Assembly: GCA_009691765.1 (NCBI GenBank)
Contig: SIAO01000008.1
Location: 16,535-80,534, forward strand
Direction of reading: 5' to 3'
DNA: 64,000 nt
Source: Planctomycetota bacterium
Lineage (GTDB): Bacteria; Planctomycetota; GCA-002687715
Part shown: positions 10,420-30,421 of the stretch, one piece after another
Numbering within the stretch: the first letter of the stretch is position 1
How the letters are laid out: each line of letters begins with the position of its first letter
Notes under the pieces: generated by a model
What the model was told of the DNA's origin: nothing
Seen by the model: only the letters and a program-made list of their open reading frames with translations
Databases searched by the model: none
Position numbers and translations under genes: made by a program

Positions 10420-12183
10420 ATGAAACACGTCACATCTGTTTGCATTGCATGCGCGATGATCCTGGGTGCATCGAATGTGCTGCGCGCGCAAACGGTCCTC
10501 GGCACCAACACGGGCAGCGCAGCGAACCAGCTGCTTGGCCGTCAGATGCAAGCAGTGGGTGACTGCGACGGCGATGGCCGCACGGACTTCGTCGTCGGCA
10601 CATCCTTCGCAGCGGCATCAACGGGCGTCAGCGGTGGTGGTTTGGTGCGGCTCGTTTCTGGCGCAACCGGTGTCACCATCTTCAGCACGCCGGGCACAGC
10701 GAACCTCCAACAACTCGGAATGGCCGTTGCGCGCGCGGGCGATGCAAACATTGACGGTGTCCCTGACTACGCAGCGGGGCAAACTTGGTTTGGCCCGGCG
10801 CTTCCTTTGCCCACCACGGCGCCACAGCCAGCTGTGGTCATCTATAGCGGGCTCACCGGCGGTGTCATCCGCACGCTGCTCGCGCCCGCGGGGACTTCAG
10901 AGTTTGGTGCAGCCATCGCCAATGCGGGTGACCGCACGGGCGACGGTATCGACGATTTCATCGTTGGCAGCCGCTCCAGCAGCTCAGCGCACTTGATGAA
11001 CGGATTCAATGGAGCCGTGCTACTGCCCTTCAGCGGGCCAGCCGGATCGCGCTTCGGCAACAGTGTTGCAGCACTCGGAGACATCACGGGCGACGGCATC
11101 GGTGAGTTTCTGATCGGGGCGAGCAGTGCAACTCTTGGCACCGTGACGAGCATTGGCGTTGCATACATCTTCGATGGCGCGAATGGTGCGCAGCTACGCA
11201 CTCACAACGGCACTTTTGCAGGCGACTTGTTTGGATCGACGCTCGCCGCCGTGCCCGATGTGAATGCTGACGGCGTTAGCGATTACTGCATCGGTGCGCC
11301 ATCCGGCGATTGGAATGGCTTGGTTAATGTCGGTGTGGTTCGCATGTTCAGCGGCGTGAGCGGCGCGTTGCTGTGGAGTCTGCAAGGCACGCAGGCCTAT
11401 CTCAGTACCAGCACCAGCAACCTTGGCGAAACGCTCGGATCGTCCCTAGCGCACGCAGGTGACATCAATATCGATGGCTGGCCAGATGTAATCGTCGGCG
11501 CTTCTGGTCACAACGGCATTGCAGAAGACTGCGGGCGCGCAGACCTTGTCTCTGGCTTCGACGGCTCGCTCCTCGGACGCTTCGAAGGCAGCGCCCTAGA
11601 TGATGGGACCGGCAGCGGTGTTGCCTCCCTCGGCGACAGTGATTCGGATGGCTGGGGCGAGGTGCTGGTCGGCACTTCACGCCACGACTTGCCCGCAATG
11701 CCAGATGCTGGCCGTGTGGACATTCTCTCGTATGGCCCATTTCTCGGAGGTTGCGCTGCCGGGGCGAACACCATCGTGTATTTGCGTGTGAACGGTTCGC
11801 TGGGTGGCGCGGCACACCGCGTCGACATCGCACTCAACGCGGCGATCAATATCGAGATGGTGAATTTGTCCATGTCTCCATTGCCAGCGAACTTTTTGCT
11901 CTTCGCCAAAGTCGGTGTGCCGGGCGCTCCCGATATCACCTATATTCCTGGCGTCGGCACGATGTGTTTCGCTCCCTCACTCTTGGCGCCGTGGGACCCG
12001 AGCCTATTCCTGCTTGCATCATCGTTTCCGACATTGCCGGGACTCATCCCCGCGACGAGCGCAAGCTGGAACAGCACCATTCCGGGCCTAGCCTTCCCTG
12101 TGCGCGTGACGCTGCAACCTGTGATCTCGTTTCCGCCGGGAAGCTACTGGGTAGGTAACGCCATCCTCGCCAACATTCGTTGA
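10420..12183 (+). CDS. Secreted FG-GAP/integrin-alpha repeat protein
   Basis: Seven GD.DGDG..D-type repeats with FG..V/IA and VGA flanks; signal peptide; GGAG upstream. Confidence 0.9.
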   Translation: MKHVTSVCIACAMILGASNVLRAQTVLGTNTGSAANQLLGRQMQAVGDCDGDGRTDFVVGTSFAAASTGVSGGGLVRLVSGATGVTIFSTPGTANLQQLGMAVARAGDANIDGVPDYAAGQTWFGPALPLPTTAPQPAVVIYSGLTGGVIRTLLAPAGTSEFGAAIANAGDRTGDGIDDFIVGSRSSSSAHLMNGFNGAVLLPFSGPAGSRFGNSVAALGDITGDGIGEFLIGASSATLGTVTSIGVAYIFDGANGAQLRTHNGTFAGDLFGSTLAAVPDVNADGVSDYCIGAPSGDWNGLVNVGVVRMFSGVSGALLWSLQGTQAYLSTSTSNLGETLGSSLAHAGDINIDGWPDVIVGASGHNGIAEDCGRADLVSGFDGSLLGRFEGSALDDGTGSGVASLGDSDSDGWGEVLVGTSRHDLPAMPDAGRVDILSYGPFLGGCAAGANTIVYLRVNGSLGGAAHRVDIALNAAINIEMVNLSMSPLPANFLLFAKVGVPGAPDITYIPGVGTMCFAPSLLAPWDPSLFLLASSFPTLPGLIPATSASWNSTIPGLAFPVRVTLQPVISFPPGSYWVGNAILANIR

Positions 12184-12252
12184 GGCGGGCGGCGAGAACC
12201 ACGCCGTGCGCCGCACTCGGGCGCGCGCGTGTGAAGCTGCTTCAGTGAGCGC

Positions 12253-12990
12253 TCAAGCCTCGTCGTCGCTACCGTCGCCGTAGCTGAGCGTGACGCGGCG
12301 CATTCCGGGAAGTGCTTGCAAAGCACTCACGAGACCGGCCGCACTGCTGCGCTCGATGTCAAGTGCCCACACTTGGCGCAAGCCACTGTCGCCATCGCTG
12401 CGCGTCATGAGCATCTGCCATTGTTTCGCGTGGGCCTTGAGACAAGCCTCCACCACATTCGGCGCCAACCCCGGGGCGGCGCAACGCAATTGCAAACGCC
12501 ATGCAGATTGCATTGCAAGTGTGTCGCTGTCGCCACTGCGCTGTCCAGCAAACCAACCGAGCGCGCACACCACGAAGGCCACGAATGCTGTCCCTGCCGC
12601 GGCCAGTTCCGGCGCAACCGTGCTCGCGGCAATGCCAACACCCACAGCGAAAATCACAAATGCAGTATCGCGAATGTCACGCACTGCTGTTCTGAAACGC
12701 ACGATGGCAAGTGTGCCCACGAGAGTGAAAGCCACCGCCGTGTTGCTGCCGACCGCCATGGTGACGAAACTGATGAGCAAGGCGAGCAACACCAGCGTGC
12801 CAGCAAACCCGGGAGTGCGTTGACGGCGGCGTGTGTCCCACCACCACGCACCGGCGACAATGGCTCCGAGCCCTGTGGCTACGAGCAGCTTCAGTAGCGA
12901 AGGCATCAACTCTTGCATACTTGCGCCATTGGAGGATGTGGAAAACAAGCTGTCCATGAGCGTTAGAATGTACCCGCTGTCATGGCTCAC
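12253..12990 (-). CDS. DUF4956 family membrane protein
   Basis: AFTLVGTLAIVRFRTAVRD motif, several TM helices, small soluble C-terminal domain; overlaps VTC gene stop; start may be ATG 12957. Confidence 0.88.
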   Translation of the reverse strand: MSHDSGYILTLMDSLFSTSSNGASMQELMPSLLKLLVATGLGAIVAGAWWWDTRRRQRTPGFAGTLVLLALLISFVTMAVGSNTAVAFTLVGTLAIVRFRTAVRDIRDTAFVIFAVGVGIAASTVAPELAAAGTAFVAFVVCALGWFAGQRSGDSDTLAMQSAWRLQLRCAAPGLAPNVVEACLKAHAKQWQMLMTRSDGDSGLRQVWALDIERSSAAGLVSALQALPGMRRVTLSYGDGSDDEA

Positions 12991-13744
12991 TGCGACCGGG
13001 TGCAGCGCTCACATCCGAGCCGGCATCTAGGCCCAAACCTGTTGCTACGACGCTGTGCGCGTACTTCGAAAAACTCTCGCCGCTCTTGCCGAGTCGATGC
13101 AACAAATCCGAGAACAGTGGCGGTTGCTCTGCGTTGTATTTCAATTCGAGAATGATCGCGGCGCTGACGCTGGCGCTGCGCTTTGGCGCATCAAAGTAGT
13201 TGGCGCCGTTTGTCGTTAGTGCTGCCGTTGCAATTGGGGTCTGGGCCTGTGCTGAAGCCCGTACCGGAATGCCCGCGCTCAGGGCTCCGTCCATCGTCAG
13301 GCGTATGCCACCCTCGCCCACCCAAGCTGCGCGCGCATACGACACAAGCAAGCGCGGGCTGTAACCACCTTGTTGCAAGGCCTCTTGGAATTGGCCCACG
13401 AAACCCGTGGAGCTCGGCTGCAAGAGCAGATCCGGAAGTCTCGCGAGCGGCACAGGCGCGCGCCTCTTCGAAACCAAGGTGCCCTTGCGGCGCTTGCGTT
13501 CCAGCCACACCACGTCTTCATTGCCGTAGCGGCGTACGCGGTACTTCGTGCCGCCGTCTTCAGCCATGCGATGGTACACATCGAGCGCTGCGTTGTCGCA
13601 ATAGAGCGAATGCACCATGTAGGTGTCATCGCTGCCTGCGAAAGGGTCTGGCGTCATGTAATCCGCAGCCCAGAGCCGCACGCGCTGCGCCGCATCGGGC
13701 GTCAGCACGATTTTCAATTCATGGCGTTGGAATGTGTCGTTCAT
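12980..13744 (-). CDS. VTC-domain (polyphosphate polymerase/CYTH-like) protein
   Basis: RHELK, YMVHSLYCD, KYRVRRYG, WLERKRR, YARAAW, IRLTMD, ILELKY, FSKY. Confidence 0.88.
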   Translation of the reverse strand: MNDTFQRHELKIVLTPDAAQRVRLWAADYMTPDPFAGSDDTYMVHSLYCDNAALDVYHRMAEDGGTKYRVRRYGNEDVVWLERKRRKGTLVSKRRAPVPLARLPDLLLQPSSTGFVGQFQEALQQGGYSPRLLVSYARAAWVGEGGIRLTMDGALSAGIPVRASAQAQTPIATAALTTNGANYFDAPKRSASVSAAIILELKYNAEQPPLFSDLLHRLGKSGESFSKYAHSVVATGLGLDAGSDVSAAPGRSEP

Positions 13745-13750
13745 GCGACT

Positions 13751-15499
13751 TTAGCGGCCGCGATTAGGAACCGGAGTGAGCGGATCCGCACCTGCGTCTT
13801 TGTAGGCCATGAGATACTCGCGACGCTGCGTAGCGAACGCATTCAAACTTGGGCGTTGACGGCCTCCGAGAGGAGCGCTATTGGGTGGCTCATTGGCTGA
13901 AGGCGTCGGAGTAGTGGGTGCAACCTGCGCTGCTGATGCAGGCGCTGTCATATCGAGAAAAGACTCGTAGCTGGTTTCCGTGCGTGTGTCGGCTGCGATG
14001 CGTTTTTCCAAGAGTGCGCGATAGCGAGCCACACTCGCGCCAAACTTCTCGGCCCCGAGCGCATCGCTGGCGAGCGTCTGCACATTCCTCAGATACTGCG
14101 CGCGGAGTTTCGGAACGCGCAGCAAGCGCGAACGCAACGGCTTTTTCACATCGTCCATGCCAGTGAACGGATCCAGAGTCATGCCGCGGCCGCCAGCAGC
14201 GGCGCCACGTGCGGTACCACCTTGTGGGTCTGTTGGCGGCTGGCCTTGCGGGTCATTGGGCCGTTGACCACGCTGCCCTCGCGGGCCCATGCCACCACTA
14301 GGGCTGAAAGATTCATTCATGTCGTGCGGGACCAAATGAAACACACCTTTGGGATCGCGGTAGAGATTGTAGTCGCTCGCTCGAATCCAATAGCCATCGC
14401 TGTTGATGAGAACCACATCCAGCGCGAGAAACCATAGCGCCGCATCCACATCAAACATGGGGCGCAATTCCGCTTCGAGCTTGTCCAGCGGGATTTCGCT
14501 CAACGTGCGGCAGAGTTTCTTCAGCGCCTCCCAATCTTCCTTCTTGTCTTCAGAGCGAATCTGATAGCGCTGTTTGTAAACCGCGAGGTCCTCGCCCGCG
14601 TAGTCCAACCCGCTCTGGCCGCCGGGACTGCCTTTCACTTTCCAGCGCGCCCCTTCGGTCGTGCCGTAATTCTCTTGCAAAAACTCGCGATTGAATTGTT
14701 GCGCACTCACAAACACGCCCCAGCTTTCGCCGTTGATGACCACTTCGACCATGTTGGCTTTCGGTGCGGACAAGTGTTCGCGCGCAATCTCACTGTAGAG
14801 CGCTGTGGAGAGGTACGACGGATCGCCGTGAGCATTGAGCAGATTCAGAGTCTTGCTGCCAGCAAGGCGCTGTTCCTTATTCACGTGATCGACACTGACA
14901 TTCAGCGACTTCTTTAGTCCCTCGCCAACCGTGAAATAAGACGATGCGCCGCGGAAGGACACACCGACTCCGGGATACTCCTTGCCATCCACTGTCAACT
15001 TCGCTGGCACTTCGACATCCGTGCCATAGAAAGCCGCAAGTTCTTTCTCCCAATCGGCGGCTTCAAACTCAAAGAAGAACGTGCGCAGCACTGTGGGGTC
15101 GTACAGAGTCTGACTGGGAAAGTGCGTCACCTTCAAAGGATCGAGTTTTTCACCCGGCCGACCCACAACCGGAGTGCCGCCGGGGCCTCGGCCGCCCGGA
15201 CCACCGGGCCCACGCCCACCGGGGCCACGTTGGCCACGGCCACCGGTCGCGCCGTCCTTCTCCATGAGTTCACGTGCGGCTTTGCGCTCAGCGGTTTCCA
15301 GACGGCCGCTTTTGTCTTTGTCGAACTGCTTCACGAGCTTGCGTTCGACTGCAGAGGGGCCCATGCCTGGACCTCCTCGCCCGGGCCCAGCACCGGCGCC
15401 GCGCGACTCACCGCCAGGCGGGGCCTGCGCCACGACTACCGTCAACAGCAGTCCCAAGGCCATCAATGTCGTTGCTGCTTGCAAGAAGGTGCTCCCCAA
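13751..15499 (-). CDS. cotH: Secreted CotH kinase family protein with EF-hand-like loop and Gly/Pro/Arg linker
   Basis: Signal peptide; DKDKSGRLETAE; VGVSFRGASSY, KKSLNV, LNLLN, NSDGY...DYNLY, PHDMNESF. Confidence 0.88.
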   Translation of the reverse strand: MGSTFLQAATTLMALGLLLTVVVAQAPPGGESRGAGAGPGRGGPGMGPSAVERKLVKQFDKDKSGRLETAERKAARELMEKDGATGGRGQRGPGGRGPGGPGGRGPGGTPVVGRPGEKLDPLKVTHFPSQTLYDPTVLRTFFFEFEAADWEKELAAFYGTDVEVPAKLTVDGKEYPGVGVSFRGASSYFTVGEGLKKSLNVSVDHVNKEQRLAGSKTLNLLNAHGDPSYLSTALYSEIAREHLSAPKANMVEVVINGESWGVFVSAQQFNREFLQENYGTTEGARWKVKGSPGGQSGLDYAGEDLAVYKQRYQIRSEDKKEDWEALKKLCRTLSEIPLDKLEAELRPMFDVDAALWFLALDVVLINSDGYWIRASDYNLYRDPKGVFHLVPHDMNESFSPSGGMGPRGQRGQRPNDPQGQPPTDPQGGTARGAAAGGRGMTLDPFTGMDDVKKPLRSRLLRVPKLRAQYLRNVQTLASDALGAEKFGASVARYRALLEKRIAADTRTETSYESFLDMTAPASAAQVAPTTPTPSANEPPNSAPLGGRQRPSLNAFATQRREYLMAYKDAGADPLTPVPNRGR

Positions 15500-15593
15500 T
15501 ATGCCCCGCTAAGTCAAAGCGGGGTCTATGAATCTAAACTCTCCGGCAGAGCCAATGTTGCGCCATAAACGGAGCCAAACTGAATTCCCAACG

Positions 15594-16529
15594 CTATGCG
15601 GAGACGGAACGCTTCGAGAGGTAGGCAGAACGCAGCATTGCGACAGAGGTGCAGGCCGCGATGCCCACGACCAGCCATTTCACGCTGTTTAGATCCATGT
15701 CTTTGAAAAGTTTGGCCGCAAACCAGACTGCTGGGACGCCGCCAATGGCGAGGCCTAGCGCGGCACGCGGCGAATAGCTGTTCGCACTGATGAAGCGCGC
15801 TCCGGCCACCGGCATCAGGAAGGCGCATGAACCCATCATGATGGGAAATGCGGTATCGGTGTTCATGCCGAGGAAGCTCACCAGAATCATGCACGGCGCG
15901 TAGAGCCCAACGCCAATGGTCATGAAGGCTCCAAGCACGAAATTGCAACCGACGGCGATGGCGAGCGTAGTGCCTGTCAAACCGACAGTGCCGGTTTGGG
16001 AACTGACATCCGCGAATTGGCGAATGCACAGAATGGTCGCAGCCACGAACAGTGCAACGCCCATGCCGACTTGAATTGCGCGACGCGGAAACCCAGCGAC
16101 ATAGCGAGCACCGAGATATGCGCCGCCGACGGCACCAAGGATCATCAAGATGAGCGTCGTGGGATCGACTTTGACGGCCTGCGTGAAGATGTACGCCTGC
16201 AAGACCGTGGGCAAGAAATGCCCCACAGTGAGCGTGCCAGGAATGAGTCGGTCGGGCACCTGACGCAACAGTTTGAACAACGCTGTGGTGGTCGCGTAAC
16301 TGCCAATGCCGAGAGTGTCGAAGAAATCCGTCACCACGCCAATGACCATTTGAATTGGATTGCAGTATCCCGTTTCAGAGCCTTGTTCTACCGCCCCTGT
16401 GCGCTTCGCTGCGCGACGCAGCCCGATCACCCAGATGACCACAAACCACAATGCGAGCAGCGCCAAGGCTGAAAGCAAAACCTTCACACCCATCTCGATA
16501 GGTGGTCCTGCTGCGTCCTGTGCGCTCAC
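15594..16529 (-). CDS. TauE/SafE family membrane protein
   Basis: FFDTLGIGSYA, IPGTL, GVGLYAP, FPIMMGSCAFL; multi-TM; GTGA overlap with permease. Confidence 0.85.
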   Translation of the reverse strand: MSAQDAAGPPIEMGVKVLLSALALLALWFVVIWVIGLRRAAKRTGAVEQGSETGYCNPIQMVIGVVTDFFDTLGIGSYATTTALFKLLRQVPDRLIPGTLTVGHFLPTVLQAYIFTQAVKVDPTTLILMILGAVGGAYLGARYVAGFPRRAIQVGMGVALFVAATILCIRQFADVSSQTGTVGLTGTTLAIAVGCNFVLGAFMTIGVGLYAPCMILVSFLGMNTDTAFPIMMGSCAFLMPVAGARFISANSYSPRAALGLAIGGVPAVWFAAKLFKDMDLNSVKWLVVGIAACTSVAMLRSAYLSKRSVSA

Positions 16530-18097
16530 GAACGGTCTTCCTGCGCGGCCTTACGCATCACGGAGTGCTTCATGCTGTACGTGAAGTAGATAACGAAACC
16601 GATGGCCAGCCAGCCAATGAGGCGGTACCAGTTGGCGACAGGCAGCGAGCACATGAGCCCGACGCACATGATGATTCCGAGGATAGGCACGATGGGCACC
16701 AGCGGGCAACGGAACGGACGCTCGGCTTCCGGGTGCTTCTTGCGCATGATCAGCACAGCAGCGCACACGATGACAAAAGCGAACAGCGTGCCGATATTGG
16801 CCATTTCAAGCAATGCGTCGATGGGCAAGAGCCCCGCCAACACTGCCACAAACGCGCCAATGAGAAGTGTGCTCTTCCAAGGTGTGCGGTATTTCGGATG
16901 CACCGCGGAGAAAAACTTCGCTGGCACCATGCCGTCACGAGCCATGGCGAGGAAGACGCGAGGCGCACTCAGCATCATGACCAGCAACACCGAAGTGATG
17001 CCCGCAACGCCAGCGCAAGCAATGATGGTCTCGGCCCAACCCAGCCCAACGGAACTAAACGCACTGGACACTCCAGCACCGACATCGATTTGGTTATAGG
17101 GGACCATGCCCGTCAGAACAGCGACAACGCCTATGTAGAGCACTGTGCAAATGAGCAGCGATGCAATGATGGCGATGGGCACATCCTTTTGGGGGTTCTT
17201 CGCTTCCTCCGCGTGGGTGCTCACCGAGTCGAATCCAATGTAGGCGAAGAAGATGATCGCGGCGCCGGCAACCATACCCACGGGTGGGCCGCTGCTGGAT
17301 TCCCCGAAGACGTTGTGTCCAAAGAACGAGATTCCGCCCCAACCCATCGGCGCCATGGGCTGCCAGTTTTCAGGGTTGATATAGAACGCTCCCACCAAGA
17401 TCACGAACAACACTGCAAAGACCTTGACGGCCACCATCGTGGCATTGAAGCGCGCGCTTTCTTGAATGCCCTTCACCAAGACCAACGTGACCGCCACCAC
17501 GACCAGCACTGCTGGCAAGTTGACGATCCCATTTGTCATCGCGAACTCGTGATCGGTGCCTGGCCCAGCGCCATCCTTGTCAACATACATGAACAACGGT
17601 TTGCTCAACGCAGCGGGCAAGTCGATACCCAACTTCGGTAGCAACTTCTGCAGGTAGCTGGACCAACCATTAGCCACCGTTGCAGAGCCCACGGCGTACT
17701 CGAGCACCAGATCCCAGCCGATGATCCACGCGAACATCTCGCCGAGCGTGGCGTAGGCATAGGTGTAGGCCGAGCCCGCAACAGGCACCATGGACGCGAA
17801 CTCCGCATAGCAGAGCGCCGCGAAGATGCAGGCCACTCCGGCCAGCATGTAGCTAAACATCAAAGCTGGGCCCGCGATGTCGTGCGCAGCCTTGCCGGTG
17901 CTCACGAAAATGCCGGCGCCAATGACTGCGCCCACACCCAAGGCCGTGAGTTGCACCGGCCCGAGCACGCGGCGTAGGCGGTTCTCGCCCTTCGCTTCGT
18001 CGAGCAGCATCTTCAGCGGTTTGCGCGTGAAAAGCTGGCCCTGCTTCTTACTGGGCCCCGACACAGAATTCTTACCAACAGGGCTGTTCGTCTGCAT
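16526..18097 (-). CDS. APC family amino acid permease (cationic amino acid transporter type)
   Basis: GVGAVIGAGIF, CYAEFASMVPVAGSAYTY, FFAYIGFDSV, RVFLAMARDG, GTLFAF. Confidence 0.95.
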   Translation of the reverse strand: MQTNSPVGKNSVSGPSKKQGQLFTRKPLKMLLDEAKGENRLRRVLGPVQLTALGVGAVIGAGIFVSTGKAAHDIAGPALMFSYMLAGVACIFAALCYAEFASMVPVAGSAYTYAYATLGEMFAWIIGWDLVLEYAVGSATVANGWSSYLQKLLPKLGIDLPAALSKPLFMYVDKDGAGPGTDHEFAMTNGIVNLPAVLVVVAVTLVLVKGIQESARFNATMVAVKVFAVLFVILVGAFYINPENWQPMAPMGWGGISFFGHNVFGESSSGPPVGMVAGAAIIFFAYIGFDSVSTHAEEAKNPQKDVPIAIIASLLICTVLYIGVVAVLTGMVPYNQIDVGAGVSSAFSSVGLGWAETIIACAGVAGITSVLLVMMLSAPRVFLAMARDGMVPAKFFSAVHPKYRTPWKSTLLIGAFVAVLAGLLPIDALLEMANIGTLFAFVIVCAAVLIMRKKHPEAERPFRCPLVPIVPILGIIMCVGLMCSLPVANWYRLIGWLAIGFVIYFTYSMKHSVMRKAAQEDRS

Positions 18098-18215
18098 TCA
18101 CGTGATCTCCAGTGCGGGCCCAATCCCGCGCGGGGCGGAGCCTACCACGAGCGCCAAGACAACCTTCATGAGCCTGCTAGCAGCTGCCATGTCTCTGTGA
18201 TAGGCTGCGCCCCGA

Positions 18216-18719
18216 ATGAACGGTCAGCGCGTCTTGATTCACAGAACATCGCCGCAACTGCGCACTCAATTACTGTGGCTATTGGTCCCTGTGCTGCTCC
18301 TCGCCCAGGTGTTCGGAGTACGCGCGACGCTGTTCCATGCGCACGGCGAAATCGGCGAACACGTTCATATGCTTGCTGCTTCGCATGACGAAGCCACGCT
18401 GCATGACGCTGCCGCTTGGCATCACTCACAGCACGAGAGCGACGAGCATCAACAGCTCACATCGAACGAGCCCGTAGACGACCACGAGGGCGTTCTTCTC
18501 GCGCTGCCTCCCGTGCTCGTCGCGACAGCCTGCGCGAAGATTGCAAGTGCGGCTATCACTGCGCACCTGCAGGCGATTCATGCCACGCTGCTGTGCAGTG
18601 CCAACTGGCTCCATCCGCAGCCAGTGCCGCTTGTTATTCGTGCTGAGATTCCTCAAGCACGACGACCAGACTCGGCGGCCGCGATGCTTCTTGGCTCCAG
18701 TCAAGCGCTTCTGATATAG
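18216..18719 (+). CDS. His-rich hypothetical protein upstream of the metal efflux operon (CzcI-like position)
   Basis: N-terminal hydrophobic helix then HAHGEIGEHVH...WHHSQHESDEH. Confidence 0.65.
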   Translation: MNGQRVLIHRTSPQLRTQLLWLLVPVLLLAQVFGVRATLFHAHGEIGEHVHMLAASHDEATLHDAAAWHHSQHESDEHQQLTSNEPVDDHEGVLLALPPVLVATACAKIASAAITAHLQAIHATLLCSANWLHPQPVPLVIRAEIPQARRPDSAAAMLLGSSQALLI

Positions 18720-18761
18720 CGCACCTCGCCCCGCGTCGAAGCGGGGCGAGCGGAGGTGCGC
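18719..18761 (+). promoter_or_regulatory. Compound hairpin starting at the leader ORF stop codon
   Basis: GCGCACCTC/GAGGTGCGC outer stem and CTCGCCCCGC/GCGGGGCGAG inner stem; covers GGAGG and the in-frame GTG at 18756. Confidence 0.55.
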
Positions 18762-18818
18762 GATCGTCGTCTGCGATCGTGCTTGTGCATCGATTCCAGC
18801 GTCCAAGGAGCCCTCGTG

Positions 18819-20447
18819 ATGAAGCGTTACCTCGTTTTCGCACTTTCGTTTTCTGCTTGTTTCTCGATTCTCTCGGGTTGCAGTCCATCCCACTCTCACG
18901 AGCACGAGCAGCCTTCAAGCACTGTGGCCGAGCTCGAACCTGAAACGAAGACCGTCTTCGGTCAACGAATCCTGCTCTTCATGGAAAACCCGCCCTTGGT
19001 GTGCGGAACCAGAGCCCGCTTCCTCGCGCATCTCACCATCAGCGCTTCAGGAGAACCGGTGCGCACTGGCACGGTCCGCTTGGAAATCGGTGCGCTGACG
19101 CTTGTCGCCGATGCTCCGAAACGTGACGGGCTCTTCGTGCCCGAGGGTTCATTCGCAGAGCCTGGAACATATAAGGCGCGACTGACCGTGCAGAGCGAGC
19201 AGGTCGAAGAGGTTCTCGACCTTGGCGAGATACGCGTGTATCCCGATGAACAGGCCGCTCGGCAGGCCGCTCCAAGCACTGAAGATGCCGTTCAATCCAA
19301 CGAAATCCCCTTCTTGATGGAGCAGCAATGGAGAGTGAAGCTGCTCCTCGCCACTGCGGCTCCACAAATCCTGTCGAAACGACTGACGCTTCCGGCGGTC
19401 ACAAAGCTGCCCGAAGGTGCCGCAGCGATCGTCGCAGCGCCAACTTCTGGTCGACTGCTCGCTCCACCCACAGGACGACTTCCCACAACCGGTGAGCGAG
19501 TTGAGAAAGGCCAGCTCCTCGGCCTGATCGAGCCGCCGCTCACGGCATCCGATGTGGCCCAGATCCAAGCGATAGACCTTGACCTCGACCTCAAAGTTCT
19601 GGAGTCCACGCGCGCACTTACTGTGGCGCAAGCTCGGCTTCGCTTTGCCGAGCGTGAACGTGAGCGACTCGGTCAACTGCGAGAAGAAGGATTGAGCACC
19701 AAGCCTCAACTGGAGCAGGCCGAGCAAAATCTGTCGGTCGCGCGCAGCGACGGTGAGGCAGCGCTCGCTACCAAGGAGTCGCTATATCGCCTGAGCGCAA
19801 ACCGCGCGGCACGAGACCTAGGCGCCACACCCACTGCCGTACGCCTCCCCCTGCGCGCGCCCATCGCAGGCACGATCGTCGCTATGGGCCGCGTCGAAGG
19901 CGAAGCCGTCAGCCCGGACGCCGCGATTTTCCGCATTCTCGATGCGTCGCGGCTCTGGATCGAAGGACGCGCGTCCGAATTCGCACTACCAGCGCTTCTC
20001 ACAGCGCCGAATGCAATCGTCTCGTTCCCCTCGATGCCCGATCAGCGCATCGAGCTTCGCGAGGACGCCGCCGCGAGTGCGTATGTCGCCAACACGATTG
20101 ACCCCGCCTCGCGCACGTTTGAAATTCGCTACGAAATCCCGAACCCCACGGGCGCACTCAAGAGCGGAATGCTGGCACAGCTTTCACTTGCGACGCAGCA
20201 TGTCGCCGCCGCAGTAGCGATACCGGCAGAGGCCGTGATCATGGAACAAGGTCTGCCAACGGTCTACGTCATGCTCTCCGGAGAGACGTTTGAGAGACGC
20301 GACATAGAACTCGGTCTCCGCGACGGCGCGCTCGTCGAAGTCCGCCGCGGAATCTCGCCCGGTGAACGGGTGGCTACACGTGGTTCAAACCTGATCAAGC
20401 TGGCAGCACTGTCACCCGCGTCGTTCGGCGCGGCCCACGCGCATTGA
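18819..20447 (+). CDS. Heavy-metal RND periplasmic adaptor (CzcB/CusB type), lipoprotein
   Basis: SD AAGGAG; lipobox LSGC then HSHEHE; GERVEKGQLL, LRAPIAG, IDPASRT, LKSGM; C-terminal AHAH. Confidence 0.92.
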   Translation: MKRYLVFALSFSACFSILSGCSPSHSHEHEQPSSTVAELEPETKTVFGQRILLFMENPPLVCGTRARFLAHLTISASGEPVRTGTVRLEIGALTLVADAPKRDGLFVPEGSFAEPGTYKARLTVQSEQVEEVLDLGEIRVYPDEQAARQAAPSTEDAVQSNEIPFLMEQQWRVKLLLATAAPQILSKRLTLPAVTKLPEGAAAIVAAPTSGRLLAPPTGRLPTTGERVEKGQLLGLIEPPLTASDVAQIQAIDLDLDLKVLESTRALTVAQARLRFAERERERLGQLREEGLSTKPQLEQAEQNLSVARSDGEAALATKESLYRLSANRAARDLGATPTAVRLPLRAPIAGTIVAMGRVEGEAVSPDAAIFRILDASRLWIEGRASEFALPALLTAPNAIVSFPSMPDQRIELREDAAASAYVANTIDPASRTFEIRYEIPNPTGALKSGMLAQLSLATQHVAAAVAIPAEAVIMEQGLPTVYVMLSGETFERRDIELGLRDGALVEVRRGISPGERVATRGSNLIKLAALSPASFGAAHAH

Positions 20448-20463
20448 TTGAGAAGCCCAACAC

Positions 20464-23400
20464 ATGATCAACCTCTTGATTCAATGGTCGCTCGCCAATC
20501 GGCTCACCATCGTGATCCTCTCGCTTCTCGTCATGGTCATGGGCGCGTTCGTCACGCTCCGAATGCCCGTCGATGTGTTCCCGGATCTCACCGCGCCGAC
20601 TGTCACAGTGCTCGTCGAAGGGCACGGCCTCGCTCCACAAGAGATGGAGACCCAAGTGACTTTTCCGATCGAGACCGCAATGAACGGAGCGGCAGACGTG
20701 CGCCGCGTGCGTTCGGGAACGGCCGTGGGAATCGCCGTCATCTGGGTCGAGTTCGAGTGGGGCACGGACATCTACCGCGCGCGCCAGACGGTGACCGAAC
20801 GATTGAGCGCAATCACAGGTTCGCTCCCCTCGCAGGTCGAGCCTCCAAAGCTCGCACCGGTGTCCTCGATCATGGGAGAGATCCTCTTCGTGTCGCTCAC
20901 GTCAGAGCGACACAGCCAACTCGATCTGCGAACGACGGCGACCACACAAGTCCGACGCAGACTCCTCTCGGTCGCGGGCGTCTCACAAGTGACGCCTATC
21001 GGAGGAGACACGAAGCAATATCAAGTCATCCTCTCACCAGATCGACTTCGTGGCTATGGGCTGGCGGCCTCGGACGTGCTGAGCGCGTTGGAGCGGACCA
21101 ACGAAAGCGTCTCGGCTGGAGTACTCACGACCGGAGCGCAAGAAGTGCTCGTCGAAGGGATTGGTCGTATCCAGTCGCTCGACGACATCGCGCGAACCAA
21201 GGTCGCCATGCACGAGGGGGTTCCGATCACCGTGTCGGACCTTGGGGTCGTCACTATCGGAGCCGCTCTCAAGCGTGGAACCGGATCCGCGTCTCGCCGC
21301 GGGCCGAATTGGGAACCCATTATTGAGCCCGGTGTAATCCTCGCGATCCAGAAGCAACCCGGTGCAAACACGTTGGAGTTGACCGAGCGCTTAGACGCAA
21401 CGCTGACCGAGATTCAAGCGGGTTTGCCTCAGGGGATGTTCATCAACAAAGACCTTTTCCGGCAAGCATCCTTCATCACCCATTCGATCTCCAACACGAC
21501 TACGGCGCTGCTCGAAGGCGCACTGATGGTCGTGCTCGTCGTCCTCGCATTCCTAGCAAGCGCTCGCGCCAGCGTGATCACGCTACTGGCGCTGCCGCTC
21601 TCTCTGCTCACATCCATGCTTGCGCTACATTTGCTCGGCGCGAGCATCAACACGATGACCCTCGGCGGCATGGCGATCGCTATTGGCGCACTTGTGGACG
21701 ACGCGATCATCGACGTCGAGAACGTCGTACGCCGTTTGCGAGAAAACGCGATGCTCCCTCACGCAGCGCGGCGCTCCGCATTGGCCGTCACCTACGAAGC
21801 GAGCGTCGAAGTGCGCGGGTCGATCGTGCTCGCGACCTTCATCATCCTTCTCGTGTTCATGCCGTTGTTCTTCCTGACCGGCGTGGAAGGGAGACTCCTA
21901 CAACCGCTTGGACTTGCCTTCACAGTCGCGCTGGCCGCTTCATTGCTCACAGCCCTCACCTTGACGCCAGCGCTGTGCATGCTGCTACTCCCAACGAGCG
22001 CCACGGTGCGCAAAGCACGCGAACCACTGCTCGTGAGAGCGCTGCAGGCTGGTTACGAGAAGCCGCTGACATGGGCACTGCGACATCCTTGGATGGTTGC
22101 ATTGCCCAGCGTGGCGCTGCTCGTCATCGCCGGGATGACTGGGCTCTCGCTTGGTCGCGGATTCCTGCCGGAGTTCAATGAAGGTGCGCTGGTCGTCGGC
22201 GTGGTGACGGTGCCCGGAACTTCGCTGACTGAAAGTGATGCCTTGGCTCACCTCGTCGAAGAGTCGTTGATGAAGCATCCTGAAATCGTCGCCATCGGAC
22301 GACGCACCGGACGTGCCGAGGAAGACGAGCACGTGCAAGGCGTTGAGGCCAGCGAGATCGACCTAACGCTCGACATGGACGCACCCACGCGGTTAGGCAA
22401 ACCGCAACGATCCAAAGAGGCGCTGCTCGATGCACTGCGGGCCGAACTTGCAGGCATTCCGGGTATTCAAGCGACGTTTGGACAGCCGATCGGCCACCGG
22501 ATCGACCACATGCTCTCCGGCACACGCGCGAGCATTGCTGTGAAGGTGTTCGGCGATGATCTCAGACGCCTGAAAACCGCGTCGGCTCAGATCGAAGGTT
22601 TGATGAAAGACATTCCCGGCGTGGTTGACCTCTCGACCGAGCAGCAATCTCAAGTACCGACCGTGCGCGTTGATTTCGATCGCGCTGCCATAGCGCGGCA
22701 TGACTTGCAAGTCAAAGATGTTGCCGACGCACTGGAGCTGGCGACGCGCGGACAAGTTGCTGGGCAGATCCTAGAAGGAATGAACACATTCGACATGCTG
22801 GTCCGGGTTGGCGAGGTCAGTGCGCTGTCTCCGGAAATGCTCTCCACCATCCTTGTGGGCACGCCGAGCGGCGTGCAAATCCCGCTCTCCGCGCTTGCAA
22901 CGCTTCGCGAGGACCGTTCGCCGAACTTCATCAGTCGCGAAAAAGTGCAACGCAAAATTGTCGTGATGTGCAATGTGTCCGGTCGAGATTTGCGTGGAGT
23001 CGTCGAAGACATTCGCGCAAAGGTCCAGAAACAAGTGAGTCTGCCACCGGGCTACTACGTCGAATACGGGGGGCAGTTCGAGAGCGCGGCCTCCACGGGA
23101 CGACTGCTGGCTGTGCTCGGGGCAGTGATCATCCTCGGCATCGCCTGCCTGCTCTACTTCATGTTTCGCTCGGCCCGCGATGTGGTGCTGATCATGTTGA
23201 ATCTTCCGCTGGCCCTGATCGGCGGAATCTTCGGGGTCTACCTTTCAGGCGGCACGCTTACGGTGGCATCGCTCATCGGTTTCATCACGGTATTCGGCAT
23301 TGCCGCACGAAATGGGATCATGCTGGTGTCGCACATCCGACACCTCCAACGCGTCGAAAAGGTCTGTGATTTCTACGAAGCTGTTCGACGCGGGGCGATT

Positions 23401-23649
23401 GAACGCTTGTCACCTATCCTCATGACCGCGCTCGCCGCCGGACTCGCACTCGTTCCGCTCGCACTTCGAGGCGATGCACCGGGAAACGAGATCCTGACGC
23501 CGATGGCAATCGTGATCTTGTTCGGTCTGCTCTCCTCGACGCTCCTCAACATGATCCTCGTACCCGCACTGTTCTTGCGCTTTGGAAAGCCGGTTCCGCG
23601 CGCTGAACTCTTACAGATCGATAAGGAGGCCATTCATGTCCCTGCGTGA
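20464..23649 (+). CDS. czcA: Heavy-metal efflux RND permease (CusA/CzcA family)
   Basis: PVDVFPDL, TLGGMAIAIGALVDDAIIDVEN, GFLPEFNEG, GIAARNGI, ERLSPILMT; 1061 aa. Confidence 0.96.
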   Translation: MINLLIQWSLANRLTIVILSLLVMVMGAFVTLRMPVDVFPDLTAPTVTVLVEGHGLAPQEMETQVTFPIETAMNGAADVRRVRSGTAVGIAVIWVEFEWGTDIYRARQTVTERLSAITGSLPSQVEPPKLAPVSSIMGEILFVSLTSERHSQLDLRTTATTQVRRRLLSVAGVSQVTPIGGDTKQYQVILSPDRLRGYGLAASDVLSALERTNESVSAGVLTTGAQEVLVEGIGRIQSLDDIARTKVAMHEGVPITVSDLGVVTIGAALKRGTGSASRRGPNWEPIIEPGVILAIQKQPGANTLELTERLDATLTEIQAGLPQGMFINKDLFRQASFITHSISNTTTALLEGALMVVLVVLAFLASARASVITLLALPLSLLTSMLALHLLGASINTMTLGGMAIAIGALVDDAIIDVENVVRRLRENAMLPHAARRSALAVTYEASVEVRGSIVLATFIILLVFMPLFFLTGVEGRLLQPLGLAFTVALAASLLTALTLTPALCMLLLPTSATVRKAREPLLVRALQAGYEKPLTWALRHPWMVALPSVALLVIAGMTGLSLGRGFLPEFNEGALVVGVVTVPGTSLTESDALAHLVEESLMKHPEIVAIGRRTGRAEEDEHVQGVEASEIDLTLDMDAPTRLGKPQRSKEALLDALRAELAGIPGIQATFGQPIGHRIDHMLSGTRASIAVKVFGDDLRRLKTASAQIEGLMKDIPGVVDLSTEQQSQVPTVRVDFDRAAIARHDLQVKDVADALELATRGQVAGQILEGMNTFDMLVRVGEVSALSPEMLSTILVGTPSGVQIPLSALATLREDRSPNFISREKVQRKIVVMCNVSGRDLRGVVEDIRAKVQKQVSLPPGYYVEYGGQFESAASTGRLLAVLGAVIILGIACLLYFMFRSARDVVLIMLNLPLALIGGIFGVYLSGGTLTVASLIGFITVFGIAARNGIMLVSHIRHLQRVEKVCDFYEAVRRGAIERLSPILMTALAAGLALVPLALRGDAPGNEILTPMAIVILFGLLSSTLLNMILVPALFLRFGKPVPRAELLQIDKEAIHVPA

Positions 23650-25027
23650 TTTGCGCATGTCATCCCTCTTGCTCTTCGTTCTCGGCGTAGCGCTGGCGGG
23701 TTGCACGACAGTCGTCGATCCCTCCCATGATTTTTCAGCGGCGCAGTCCTTGATTCACGACACAACGGGAATGACCGCCGCGTTTGATCCTGAAGCCTCG
23801 GTACTCAGCGCGGTCGCGATCGAGCAGGTGCTCGCAGAGGGCCTCACGCTCGACGAGACGCTTTCACTTGCGCTCGCGAACAACCGTCGCCTCCATGCCG
23901 GGTTCTTTGAATTGGGCGTCGGCCATGCAGACTTCGTTCAAGCGGGCCTGCTCAAGAACCCGAGTTTGAGCTTGGCCTTCTTGCTGCCGTCCGGCGGAGG
24001 ACGATCAAGAGTCGGAGCCGACCTCATCGAGAGCGTAGCGGAGGTGTGGCAACTTCGTGAGCGCAAGGAAGTGGCGCGACTCAGCCAAGATCAGCGCATC
24101 CTCGACTTGTCGCGATTCGCTGGTGAACTGATCGGCAGTACGAAAGCGGCATACTTCGAAGCGGTGGCCGCTCGCGAGACCCATGCTGTCACCGAGCAAA
24201 ACACGACCCTCGCGCGCATGCTTCTCGCCAAGATACAGCGCCAAGTGGAACTCGGTGTGGCAACGAAGACCGACGCAGATCTTGCGCGTGCGACCTTGCT
24301 CAGCGCAGAGTTGAACGACCAGCGGCAGTCGCAAGCCGAAGGAATAGCCAAGCAACGCCTCGCCAGTCTGCTTTCCCTCGATATGGACATGCGCAAGGTT
24401 GGACTGACGGACGCTCTGCCCGGCGTTGATGCCATGGATGGGCTGGACGCTGAACTCGTCGCGCGCTGCCAGCAAACCCGGCTCGACGTGCGCGCGGCCA
24501 CACTCGCCTTGAAATCCATGGATGCCACAGTCCGGCTCGAACGTAGTCGTACAGTTCCGTCGGCGGCAATCGGGATTACCGCCGAACGCCCGGAGTCAGG
24601 CAGTGCTACGAGCTTTCTCGGCGGCATCACAGGCACGATCGAGCTACCGATCTTCGATCAAAACCACGCCCAAGTCCGTCGAGCGGAATACCGTCGCAAT
24701 GCCCTAGCCAAAGAACTGGAGGCGCTCAGTGCCGAAGTCGCAGCCCAAGTGCGAGCAGCGTTAGACAGAGCGAATGCCGCAAAAAGTGTTTTGCTCTTCG
24801 TCGAACGTGATGTGCTTCCGCAAGCTCTGGTCAGCGCCACACACGCTCAGCGAGCCTACGAACTTGGGGAGACCACCCTGCTTAGCCTGCTCGGAGCACG
24901 ACAGCGCGTCCTCTTGGTAGAGCAGGAATTCTTGGATGCGCAACTCGAACTCGCGCGTGCGCAACTCGAACTGGAGCGAAGCGCTGGAACACCGCTCAGC
25001 GTCCTCAGGCGGACCGCGCAAAGGTGA
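23636..25027 (+). CDS. TolC/CzcC family outer membrane efflux lipoprotein
   Basis: SD AAGGAGG; lipobox LAGC; AGLLKNP, ELPIFDQN, AYELGE. Confidence 0.9.
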   Translation: MSLRDLRMSSLLLFVLGVALAGCTTVVDPSHDFSAAQSLIHDTTGMTAAFDPEASVLSAVAIEQVLAEGLTLDETLSLALANNRRLHAGFFELGVGHADFVQAGLLKNPSLSLAFLLPSGGGRSRVGADLIESVAEVWQLRERKEVARLSQDQRILDLSRFAGELIGSTKAAYFEAVAARETHAVTEQNTTLARMLLAKIQRQVELGVATKTDADLARATLLSAELNDQRQSQAEGIAKQRLASLLSLDMDMRKVGLTDALPGVDAMDGLDAELVARCQQTRLDVRAATLALKSMDATVRLERSRTVPSAAIGITAERPESGSATSFLGGITGTIELPIFDQNHAQVRRAEYRRNALAKELEALSAEVAAQVRAALDRANAAKSVLLFVERDVLPQALVSATHAQRAYELGETTLLSLLGARQRVLLVEQEFLDAQLELARAQLELERSAGTPLSVLRRTAQR

Positions 25028-25029
25028 CT

Positions 25030-25419
25030 GCAGAACAGGCGGATCCCGTGGTGCTGCCTGCCAACCTGGAAATACCGTGGCAAGCATGACTGCGGCAAAC
25101 CATCCGATGAAAAGATTGTTGCACAGATAGGCGATAAAAAACCAAAGCCCGAAGTCGCACCGCCAACAAGCAGCGCCCAAAACGGACGCCATATTCCCCG
25201 CTTTGCGAACAACAACCCGCGCACAACTGTTGCAGGCGCAAGCACGAGCACTCCTTTACTCACTGTGTCTATCACCATGTACAACGCATCGAAGAGATCA
25301 AGGCCGCGCCAGTAAGAGTCATCCAAGACAAGCAATACAAAAAACATGCCCAGAAGCCCATAAGGGACAAGGAAGCACAGATAGGAGACTCTTTGCGTTA
25401 TGCGCGGGTTGAGGCTCAT
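25030..25419 (-). pseudogene. Membrane-protein gene, frameshifted at a T6 run and probably 3'-truncated
   Basis: Hydrophobic frame MSLNPRIT...GATSGFGF continues as FIAYLCNNLFIGWFAAVMLATVFPGW only if one T is added at 25136-25141; region looks AT-richer than flanks. Confidence 0.5.
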
Positions 25420-25601
25420 CGTCGGATCTCACATGCGCTCTTGCGTGCCGTCGCACTCAAAACCCAAGGCAACCACACGGTCGCAAGGGCTACCTGTAAA
25501 AACTACACGCCAAATACCAGAGCAGATCGAGGAGCTTCAGTGGGGGCTTCGGCCATTCGGGTGGGTGGGACGCGGGGGCATGCGCTCAGGGCCACGAGCG
25601 C

Positions 25602-25632
25602 TGAATCGCTCCGGGTTTCCCGGGGCGATTCA
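25602..25632. repeat. 14-bp inverted repeat downstream of tRNA-Arg
   Basis: TGAATCGCTCCGGG-ttt-CCCGGGGCGATTCA (one wobble pair). Confidence 0.6.
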
Positions 25633-25802
25633 CTCTGGCGCCAAAGTGGCACGCCACCGCACGCGTCCGGCAAACTGCCCGAATCCTTCGAGAAAACACC
25701 TATATTCTGCGGGATGGGATTGCGGTCTCCGCGCCACGCGAAGCGGGCAGCATTGTGGCAACGGAAAGCGCGCGCAAACCCTGAATTCGCAGATTCTTCG
25801 AG

Positions 25803-25876
25803 CGGCCCCGGCGCGATTCGAACGCGCGACCTGCGGTTTAGGAAACCGCTGCTCTATCCAACTGAGCTACGGGACC
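25803..25876 (-). tRNA. tRNA-Arg(CCT)
   Basis: Reverse complement GGTCCCGTAGCTCAGTTGGATAGAGCAGCGGTTTCCTAAACCGCAGGTCGCGCGTTCGAATCGCGCCGGGGCCG; cloverleaf; CCA not encoded. Confidence 0.96.
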
Positions 25877-26112
25877 TTGATGCATGTGTCTTAGCAGCGC
25901 CGCTGCAGAGCGGGAAGCGTGGAGAAAACCTCGAGACAGCCCACCAAAGCCTGAGGTATCGCGACGCATCGTGGGCCGCCGAAATGCACAAGGCCCAAGA
26001 GGGCGCAGTAGTGAGCCGAAGTGCACAGGGCCCCCAGTGCAAAGCGGGGTGGATTGCAGCGAAAGCAGCTATCCAGGTGCGCGTAGAGTTGGCACAGCAC
26101 GGAGCAGCCACC

Positions 26113-28980: not shown

Positions 28981-30421
28981 AAACCGATCATGCTCCTGCA
29001 ATCCGCTTGAAGGCGCATTTTCACGCCGCGAGGCGCTGCGCACTTTTTCGGGCGGCTTCGGCTTGCTCGCTCTCGGAGCACTCGGCGGGTTCGGAGAACT
29101 CGGCTCTACGCGCACGCCGCAAGACACCGCCGCGAATCCGCTCGCGCCCCACGCACCACACTTTGCAGCGCGCGCGAAACGCATCATCTGGTTGAACATG
29201 GCCGGAGCGCCGAGTCATGTAGACACCTTTGATTACAAGCCCAAGTTGAATGCGGCAGACGGCCAAGCAACCAGCGCCGCGCGGCGTGGTGGTGGCAAGT
29301 GGTTGGGCTCACCCTGGAAGTTCGGCCAGCACGGCCAAAGCGGCCAGTGGATCAGCGAACTGTTCCCCAAGGTCGCAGAGCACGCCGACAAGCTGTGCAT
29401 CCTCAATGGCATGTCCACCGATGTGCCGGCGCATCAACAGGCGGCATTGAAACTGCATACAGGCAATTTCCAATTCGTGCGGCCATCTGTGGGCAGTTGG
29501 ACGCTGTACGGCCTCGGCACAGAGAACCGCAATCTCCCTGGCTTTGTGGCCTTCAGCCCACCCGCAGGCCAAGGCGGTGGCGGCATTCACGGCAGCGCAT
29601 TCTTGCCCGCCATCTTCCAAGGACAGCGCGTGGGAGTGTCGCGTGGTGGCGGGTTGTTCCGTAGCAACAGCCAAGACGATGCCGTGCCCAACATCGAGAA
29701 CGAGCACTACTCGCAAACCGGGCAGCGCGAGCAATTGGACTTCGTTCAGGAATTGAACAAGGAACGCTTGCGAGTGACCGGCGCCGAAGTCGGCACCGAA
29801 GGCGTAATCGAGGCTGCTGAGTTGGCCTTCCGCATGCAAGCCGAAGTGCCCACATTGCTCGACCTCAGTTCTGAATCAAAAAAAACGCAGGACGCCTACG
29901 GCCTCAACAACAATGACACGTCCGGTTTCGGCAAGCAGTGCTTGTTGGCGCGCCGCTTCGCGGAAAAGGGCGTGCGCTTCATCCAACTTTCGCAAGGCGG
30001 ATGGGACCACCACAGAAACTTGCGCAACGATCTCGCGCGCTCAGCGATTTCCGTGGACCAGCCCATCGCAGCGTTGCTCGCAGACCTTGCACAACGCGGT
30101 CTTCTGAAAGACACGCTGGTGCTTTGGGGTGGCGAGTTCGGGCGCACGCCCTACGCACAAGGCGATGACGGCCGCGATCACAACCACAAGGGCTTTACGC
30201 TGTGGATGGCGGGCGGCGGTGTGAAGGGCGGGCTGCGCTACGGCGCCACCGACGAATACGGCATGGAAGCGGTCGATGGGCGTCTGTCGATCCACGATTT
30301 GCACGCCACCATGCTGCACCTCATGGGGCTCGACCACACCAAACTCACGCACCGTTACGCGGGGCGCGATTTCCGGCTGACGGATGTGCACGGCGAAGTC
30401 GCACGCGAAATCCTCGCCTGA
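28970..30421 (+). CDS. DUF1501 family protein (Tat-type signal)
   Basis: SRREAL; GAPSHVDTFDYKP; LLARRFAEKGVRF; WDHH; GEFGRTP; GRDHN; GRDFRLTDV. Confidence 0.95.
   Translation: MSIENRSCSCNPLEGAFSRREALRTFSGGFGLLALGALGGFGELGSTRTPQDTAANPLAPHAPHFAARAKRIIWLNMAGAPSHVDTFDYKPKLNAADGQATSAARRGGGKWLGSPWKFGQHGQSGQWISELFPKVAEHADKLCILNGMSTDVPAHQQAALKLHTGNFQFVRPSVGSWTLYGLGTENRNLPGFVAFSPPAGQGGGGIHGSAFLPAIFQGQRVGVSRGGGLFRSNSQDDAVPNIENEHYSQTGQREQLDFVQELNKERLRVTGAEVGTEGVIEAAELAFRMQAEVPTLLDLSSESKKTQDAYGLNNNDTSGFGKQCLLARRFAEKGVRFIQLSQGGWDHHRNLRNDLARSAISVDQPIAALLADLAQRGLLKDTLVLWGGEFGRTPYAQGDDGRDHNHKGFTLWMAGGGVKGGLRYGATDEYGMEAVDGRLSIHDLHATMLHLMGLDHTKLTHRYAGRDFRLTDVHGEVAREILA

Follow-up and report, generated by a model that had tools for sequence, protein, structure and literature searches.

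A recurrent CotH, VTC and DUF4956 gene trio in Planctomycetota and beyond: a predicted Vtc4-type polymerase, an MgtC-like membrane protein and a putatively exported kinase

Introduction

In the yeast VTC complex (Vtc4/Vtc3/Vtc1), polyphosphate is described as passing from the catalytic tunnel of the enzyme into a membrane pore with rings of lysine and arginine at its mouth. This study concerns a bacterial gene trio in which a protein with the same catalytic tunnel domain is encoded beside a membrane protein of the DUF4956 family and a kinase of the CotH family. The trio lies at 12253-15499, on the minus strand, of the stretch analysed here (the window), 64,000 nucleotides of a Planctomycetota genome (assembly GCA_009691765.1, contig SIAO01000008.1).

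The closest described relatives of the locus are in Gram-positive bacteria. In streptococci, clostridia and bifidobacteria, the same three genes have been noted as accessory genes directly adjoining pel operons (10.1101/768473), and in Streptococcus intermedius (SIR_1592-1594; Whitfield et al.) genes for CotH, a "polyphosphate polymerase" and DUF4956 are side by side. Deletion of the DUF4956 gene in S. intermedius is reported to raise the level of Pel and deletion of the CotH gene to lower it, while each deletion cut aggregation in sputum medium by more than half; the authors describe the membrane protein as MgtC-like with an ACT domain and report having found the arrangement only at pel loci (PMC12345266). 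The Clostridium perfringens locus NELoc-2 also has VTC domain genes, membrane proteins of about 225 amino acids (annotated as "tubulin/FtsZ") and CotH together (PMC2879425). By size and position these membrane proteins are probably DUF4956. NELoc-2 continues with genes for a 685-amino acid unknown protein, a HEAT-repeat protein and a chitin-synthase-like enzyme, which the window locus does not have, and the window trio also differs from the pel accessory set: its genome is of planctomycete type, and neither pel nor synthase genes adjoin it.

Each member of the trio can also be compared with a better known protein. Bacillus CotH, which phosphorylates the spore coat proteins CotB and CotG, operates where ATP is available; in B. 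subtilis its activity requires D228 and D251, and mutation of these residues abolishes it (PMC7821199). MgtC/SapB proteins have a five-helix membrane domain and an ACT-like C-terminal domain, and MgtC of Salmonella is reported to be connected with phosphate physiology. A literature search turned up no biochemical work on the trio or on any bacterial VTC protein. The trio joins three problems, namely bacterial VTC polymerases, the energy source of exported kinases and the molecular action of the MgtC superfamily, and it is small, widespread and genetically testable, with tractable organisms among its carriers.

The gene trio and its recurrence

The three genes, identified by open reading frame (ORF) calls and Pfam, are co-directional:

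13751-15499, minus strand: CotH-family kinase gene; 582 amino acids, TTG start, with an alternative ATG at residue 13
12980-13744, minus strand: VTC domain protein gene; 254 amino acids, soluble triphosphate tunnel domain
12253-12990, minus strand: DUF4956 gene; 245 amino acids from a GTG start, predicted MgtC-like membrane protein

Both junctions were read directly. The TAA of CotH is followed after 6 nt by the ATG of VTC, and the TGA of VTC and the GTG start of DUF4956 overlap by 11 nt. A public protein identical to the DUF4956 product (P0011) begins at what is residue 25 of the window ORF, an ATG, so the overlap could instead be a gap of 61 nt. With that alternative kept in view, the tight coupling of the three genes claimed in an earlier note on this DNA is borne out.

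The earlier note had also remarked that the trio recurs in bacteria, and neighbourhood co-occurrence analysis agrees. In a sample of 301 genomes of the phylum, including that of the window, VTC was found in 81, DUF4956 in 80 and CotH in 88 genomes; VTC and DUF4956 were found together in 76, VTC and CotH in 72, and all three in 70. Because relatedness makes the genomes non-independent, the counts are given here without relying on Fisher values; the co-occurrence of the trio is far above chance. Adjacency was assessed for 100 VTC matches, after three rows were dropped as second pieces of genes already listed, and with the 87 of 96 DUF4956 rows that passed the Pfam cut-off. DUF4956 is directly downstream of VTC on the same strand for 57 of the 100 matches and directly upstream for six; otherwise it is within 6 kb (13), on the opposite strand (1), farther away (1), or off the contig of VTC (22, many of these contigs being short).

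A second scan, anchored on DUF4956, covered 80 loci from at least 14 phylum-level groups as judged by record title, including Planctomycetota, Acidobacteriota, Verrucomicrobiota, Poribacteria, Chloroflexota, Bacillota, Proteobacteria, Bdellovibrionota, Gemmatimonadota and Actinomycetes. Purpose-built hidden Markov models found VTC in 69 and CotH in 59 of the 80. The DUF4956 ORF was called in 78 loci, 57 of which had at least 4 kb on both sides and were assessable. All three families are present in 39 of these 57, with 31 forming tight same-strand chains, while the remainder have DUF4956 and VTC only (11), DUF4956 and CotH only (5) or DUF4956 alone (2). Gene order varies across the cross-phylum loci: VTC-DUF-CotH is the most common (24, and two more with a second CotH), followed by VTC-DUF (21), CotH-VTC-DUF, which is the order of the window (11), DUF-CotH (5), DUF-VTC (5) and others. 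Clustering of 1058 neighbour ORFs from the 80 loci gave no fourth recurrent family. The next most common neighbour is a GT2 chitin-synthase-like enzyme (9/80), and histidine kinases (7), response regulators (7), a 716-amino acid unknown protein (6) and HEAT-repeat proteins (6) are rarer. Among the control genomes, Bacteroides thetaiotaomicron, Corynebacterium glutamicum and Methanosarcina acetivorans match all three families.

As judged from gene content and order, the trio is a conserved functional unit and a self-contained module. It stands alone in most of the sampled loci, and the published statement that would confine it to pel loci, as given in PMC12345266, does not hold in these samples. 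One other genome in the phylum sample belongs to the same genus; it is 97% complete and matches none of VTC, DUF4956 and CotH, which suggests that the trio was gained or lost recently within the genus.

The VTC protein

The VTC protein matches Pfam PF09359 (E 3.2e-26) over profile positions 1-231 of 235. The domain fills the 254-amino acid protein, on which no SPX or further Pfam family was found. There is no hydrophobic stretch (maximum 0.96), in keeping with the earlier description of the protein as cytoplasmic. The profile built from 40 bacterial VTC proteins aligns with yeast Vtc4 along the entire tunnel domain (E 1.3e-27) and gives weaker matches to Vtc2 and Vtc3 (E 1e-12 to 5e-14). The best solved matches to a structural model of the window protein (pLDDT 85.7) are likewise chains of Vtc4 (E 6.6e-15, TM 0.67-0.69), while triphosphatases and CyaB-type cyclases are far weaker fold matches (E 1e-8 to 1e-5).

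Nine residues of Vtc4 are reported to bind triphosphate and Mn2+ and to be needed for polyphosphate content, and K458 is described as the only one of the nine to differ in the inactive proteins, being Ile in Vtc2 and Leu in Vtc3 (10.1101/2023.01.27.525886). Counted along the printed alignment to chain 8i6v_E, all nine are present in the window protein, where K11, R69, R71, K84, Y136, R138, E200, S226 and K227 are equivalent to K200, R264, R266, K281, Y359, R361, E426, S457 and K458 of Vtc4. Each is kept in 34-40 of the 40 aligned bacterial sequences, and the equivalent of K458 is lysine in all 40 and in 69 of 70 cross-phylum sequences. Because the nine catalytic residues are kept, including the equivalent of K458, and because Vtc4 is the best match in both sequence and structure, the protein is predicted to be a polymerase of the Vtc4 type, as had been supposed, with the complete catalytic set and without the substitution seen in Vtc2 and Vtc3. 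It probably makes polyphosphate. Two VTC ORFs from other loci (L083 and L109) have long N-terminal extensions; these contain no Pfam family and are therefore probably over-called starts.

PPK1 is present in 48 of 81 genomes with VTC and in 126 of 220 without it (odds ratio 1.09), so presence of the two is independent. The possibility that the trio is a plain replacement for PPK1 was rejected on these counts, and the trio is thus more than a stand-in for the usual storage enzyme. Searches of the genome of the window (90% complete) found no PPK1 and no PPK2, and the VTC protein may be its only candidate polyphosphate synthase.

The DUF4956 protein

The DUF4956 protein matches Pfam PF16316 (E 4.2e-11) and belongs to a family with 2868 cluster representatives at E <= 0.001, mostly of 220-245 amino acids. 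In the structural model (pLDDT 85.6) a short N-terminal helix is followed by five long helices, as expected from the earlier description of a protein with several transmembrane segments, and by a beta-alpha-beta-beta-alpha-beta domain:

12538-12918, minus strand: membrane domain; DUF4956 residues 25-151, five predicted helices
12280-12501, minus strand: ACT-like C-terminal domain (beta-alpha-beta-beta-alpha-beta); DUF4956 residues 164-237

Fold searches with Foldseek and VIA-align gave matches to the C-terminal domain only, and the membrane part was barely tested by them. The matches are to ACT and ferredoxin-like domains, including the C-terminal domains of MgtC proteins (2lqj, Z 8.6; 7qa5, Z 8.1). 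A structure-atlas look-up also gave MgtC as a lead, with a score of only 0.77, and this was later confirmed by hhalign: an alignment of 73 DUF4956 proteins matches one of 15 MgtC proteins at 98.7% (E 2e-16) over 203 columns that cover both domains. Three places in the phylum sample match both the DUF4956 and the MgtC Pfam models, and all three are inside VTC/CotH clusters. Going by this profile comparison, DUF4956 is a divergent homologue of MgtC. The resemblance includes the five-helix membrane domain and the ACT-like C-terminal domain; however, the window protein misses the Pfam MgtC model, for which there is no match in the genome of the window at E <= 0.001, and it carries an Arg-Phe-Arg...Asp..Asp motif. 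For classical MgtC we know of no tie to VTC and CotH.

The motif is in the loop between helices 3 and 4 and its Arg-Phe-Arg part is specific to DUF4956, being absent from the MgtC consensus. All 73 aligned sequences have G92, R98, F99, R100 and G119, and D108 (72/73) and D105 (68/73) are nearly invariant. From the distribution of charge, the motif loop and the C-terminal domain probably face the cytoplasm. Invariant arginines at this predicted face are reminiscent of the basic rings at the mouth of the yeast VTC channel, and they could act in the same way if DUF4956 oligomerises.

The earlier note had proposed that VTC and DUF4956 form a split VTC complex. A role for DUF4956 as the counterpart of the small three-helix channel subunits is ruled out by the homology to MgtC, and no DUF202 protein was found in the genome of the window (90% complete), so the pair is not a split VTC complex by descent. 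The likeness to the yeast system lies in the shared tunnel domain with all of its polymerase residues, and in a cytoplasmic enzyme that is tied to a membrane protein, here genetically. In contrast to the yeast complex, the VTC protein of the trio has neither SPX nor a fused transmembrane domain, the membrane partner is MgtC-like and not a three-helix DUF202 subunit, and a secreted kinase, for which the yeast system has no equivalent, is a member of the set.

At three places, VTC and a DUF4956/MgtC intermediate lie beside four tandem CotH paralogues with open frames of 432-460 amino acids. These places are at G014:C61:3235-11759, at G027:C12:3233-23806, which also has a longer copy (921-amino acid frame), and at G149:C176:10128-20355, again with a longer copy (610-amino acid frame).

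The CotH protein

The CotH protein matches Pfam PF08757 with an E of 1.2e-38 (133.8 bits against a cut-off of 23.8) and matches the solved CotH of B. cereus (5jd9) with an E of 1.1e-8. Three features were placed on it:

13964-14962, minus strand: CotH kinase domain; residues 180-512, with D368 and D393 as the catalytic aspartates by alignment
15425-15499, minus strand: hydrophobic N-terminus, approximately residues 1-25; signal peptide or membrane anchor
15287-15322, minus strand: EF-hand-like loop; CotH residues 60-71

D368 and D393 align with D224 and D247 of the B. cereus protein, which probably correspond to D228 and D251 in B. subtilis numbering, and the 23-residue spacing is that of B. 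subtilis. Conservation of the two catalytic aspartate positions among aligned CotH partners is 53/55 and 60/65. The kinase fold and both aspartates are thus shared with Bacillus CotH, but the window protein differs in having a putative export signal, linkers rich in Gly, Pro and Arg, and the EF-hand-like loop. No gene for a CotB-like or CotG-like substrate was found near it.

The earlier note described a CotH kinase with a signal peptide and an EF-hand-like loop. The N-terminus is indeed hydrophobic (best 15-mer with a mean Kyte-Doolittle value of 2.31), and positions 1, 3, 5, 6, 8 and 12 of the loop are D, D, S, G, L and E, which agrees with what we take to be the residue rule for those positions of an EF-hand loop. 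However, the Pfam models EF-hand_1 and EF-hand_6 are below their cut-offs (E 0.17-0.19, about 12 bits against about 25), so the likeness is at the level of the motif only. Significant EF-hands are present in just two of 66 CotH partners elsewhere. In the window itself, a PSCyt1/PSCyt2/PSD1 protein encoded at 25393-28980 on the plus strand has a significant EF-hand (Pfam E about 1e-8), which suggests that EF-hand loops recur among exported proteins of this genome.

In the cross-phylum loci, 43 of the 59 CotH partners that could be assessed carry a hydrophobic segment ahead of the kinase domain, as against two of 32 VTC proteins. The Pfam CotH model is passed by 64 of 66 partners, and the accessory domains of these 66 (LTD in 12, beta-helix in 9, CHB_HEX_C_1 in 6, Fn3_assoc in 6 and a type IX secretion system sorting tail in 3) are, as domain families, of the types found on surface proteins. 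With both catalytic aspartates generally kept as well, CotH is predicted to be an exported kinase.

The putatively exported enzyme is also the best-conserved member of the trio at the level of aligned sequence: across the 16 loci where the CotH alignment is long, the median identities to the window proteins are 47% for CotH, 37% for DUF4956 and 32% for VTC. The CotH of trios from Acidobacteriota, Planctomycetota and Verrucomicrobiota is 42-56% identical to that of the window and the VTC 25-38% (loci L033, L036, L038, L040, L044-L046, L048, L049, L055, L060, L064 and L066). The high identity of CotH may reflect a conserved substrate or transfer of the kinase. A second CotH gene in the genome of the window (G000:C4:327706-328461; L113:1240-2850) encodes 536 amino acids, is 26% identical to the first, and lies next to genes for an ABC ATPase and an integrase of phage type, with neither VTC nor DUF4956 there.

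Interpretation of the module

The reading that we favour, though only tentatively, is that of a membrane-spanning module made up of a Vtc4-type polymerase, an MgtC-like hub and an exported kinase. The soluble VTC protein would build polyphosphate from ATP in the cytoplasm and would work at the membrane with the DUF4956 protein; a physical association of the two is reasonably likely. DUF4956 would connect the cytoplasmic enzyme with the exterior, whether by conducting the polymer, by acting as a regulator that senses a ligand, or in both ways, and the exported CotH would act on the outer side, on components of the envelope or matrix. Movement of polyphosphate outward by DUF4956 is plausible but less likely than not, and use of polyphosphate by CotH as the phosphoryl donor, although an attractive idea, is unlikely.

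Several observations weigh against this reading or parts of it. Five genomes with an adjacent DUF4956-CotH pair but no VTC at the locus were checked, and a genome-wide search found VTC in none of them; they include a chromosome of 5.3 Mb in a single record, and PPK1 is present in three of the five and PPK2 in the other two. In the phylum sample, CotH is missing from six of the 76 genomes that have both VTC and DUF4956, and a further three genomes have DUF4956 and CotH without VTC. In S. intermedius, where deletion of the DUF4956 or the CotH gene altered aggregation, no change is reported for deletion of the VTC gene (PMC12345266). These cases weigh against a strict dependence between the parts, and DUF4956, not VTC, is, by gene co-occurrence, the constant partner and hub of the module. 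No fused VTC-DUF4956 or VTC-CotH protein was found, which is weak evidence, and no solved channel matched the membrane part of DUF4956 in the fold searches. The sequencing-run records associated with the window cover freshwater metagenome DNA only and include no RNA or expression data. MgtC proteins are known as regulators rather than channels, and bacteria tolerate polyphosphate in the cytoplasm, so its export is not required by logic. Confidence in polyphosphate-driven phosphorylation is low because the parts are separable and the family of the membrane partner is known for regulation.

That regulatory record leads to an explanation in which DUF4956 is an MgtC-like, membrane-anchored sensor of a metabolite or ion that switches VTC, polyphosphate stays in the cytoplasm, and CotH is linked only through a shared envelope or phosphate-stress programme. 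The homology to MgtC over both domains, the three places where one stretch matches both Pfam models, the role of ACT-like domains as ligand sensors and the failure to find a channel-like match for the membrane part are all consistent with it, as is the need of yeast VTC for an SPX sensor domain that the bacterial protein does not have. It leaves unexplained, however, that an exported kinase is the most common third partner and that DUF4956-CotH pairs persist without VTC, and the invariant Arg-Phe-Arg motif is not a feature of MgtC; we consider it improbable. Another explanation is that a secreted polysaccharide is modified or controlled by the trio, for instance through phosphorylation. Contiguity with pel operons (10.1101/768473) and the effects of the DUF4956 and CotH gene deletions on Pel and aggregation (PMC12345266) point in this direction, and so do the GT2 chitin-synthase-like, HEAT-repeat and 716-amino acid protein genes found at six to nine of the 80 loci, which recall NELoc-2, and the beta-helix and chitobiase-type domains of some CotH partners. 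The window trio, however, adjoins no synthase, its neighbours being TauE, an amino-acid permease and an FG-GAP protein. A synthase cluster was not found in 71 of the 80 loci, so the polysaccharide link cannot be the general function of the trio, and as an account of the module it is very unlikely.

Least probable of all, and in our judgement highly so, is that VTC is another kind of triphosphate tunnel enzyme, such as a triphosphatase or nucleotide cyclase, in a module that handles a small phosphorylated molecule. The fold is common to those enzymes, and a conserved glutamate of the bacterial proteins (E9, 38/38), which we take to be reminiscent of the acidic motif of hydrolytic tunnel enzymes, is at the position of T198 in Vtc4. 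The nine polymerase residues are nevertheless kept, including the discriminating lysine, and Vtc4 is by far the best match in sequence and structure. The membrane-spanning module remains the preferred reading. In its boldest form the trio would be a bacterial, and in some cases archaeal, polyphosphate synthase-exporter, with a Vtc4-type polymerase seated on an MgtC-like oligomer and the polymer serving as donor or substrate of CotH. This form is a long shot, but if true it would account for the energy supply of phosphorylation outside the cytoplasm, a setting with little ATP, and would give the MgtC superfamily its first transport-type function.

Surroundings of the locus

An exporter gene of the TauE/SafE type is upstream of the trio on the same strand, 94 nt away, and an amino-acid permease gene is also upstream, while the FG-GAP protein gene is downstream and convergent with the trio. 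Within the window, the trio has no pel-type or GT2 synthase gene next to it. A scan of 11900-18500 for promoters and terminators gave counts that were not above those of shuffled sequence, and NCBIfam returned no family for any of the four proteins submitted. Directly upstream of the CotH start, in the interval between TauE and CotH, there is a 7-bp stem with a 7-nt loop (15504-15524, minus strand), but folding of this region is no better than that of shuffled sequence (z 0.30).

A set of three RND efflux genes (HlyD-type adaptor, AcrB-type pump and outer-membrane factor) at 18756-25027 on the plus strand is 0.7 kb upstream of the block formed by the permease, TauE and the trio, on the opposite strand to it. 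The remaining genes of the window are of planctomycete type, including those for PSCyt1/2, PSD1 and DUF1501 proteins and for a sulfatase and its maturase. At 30355-32274 on the minus strand is the gene for a DNA methyltransferase with Eco57I-type and MmeI-type domains, which may be a restriction-modification enzyme of type IIG.

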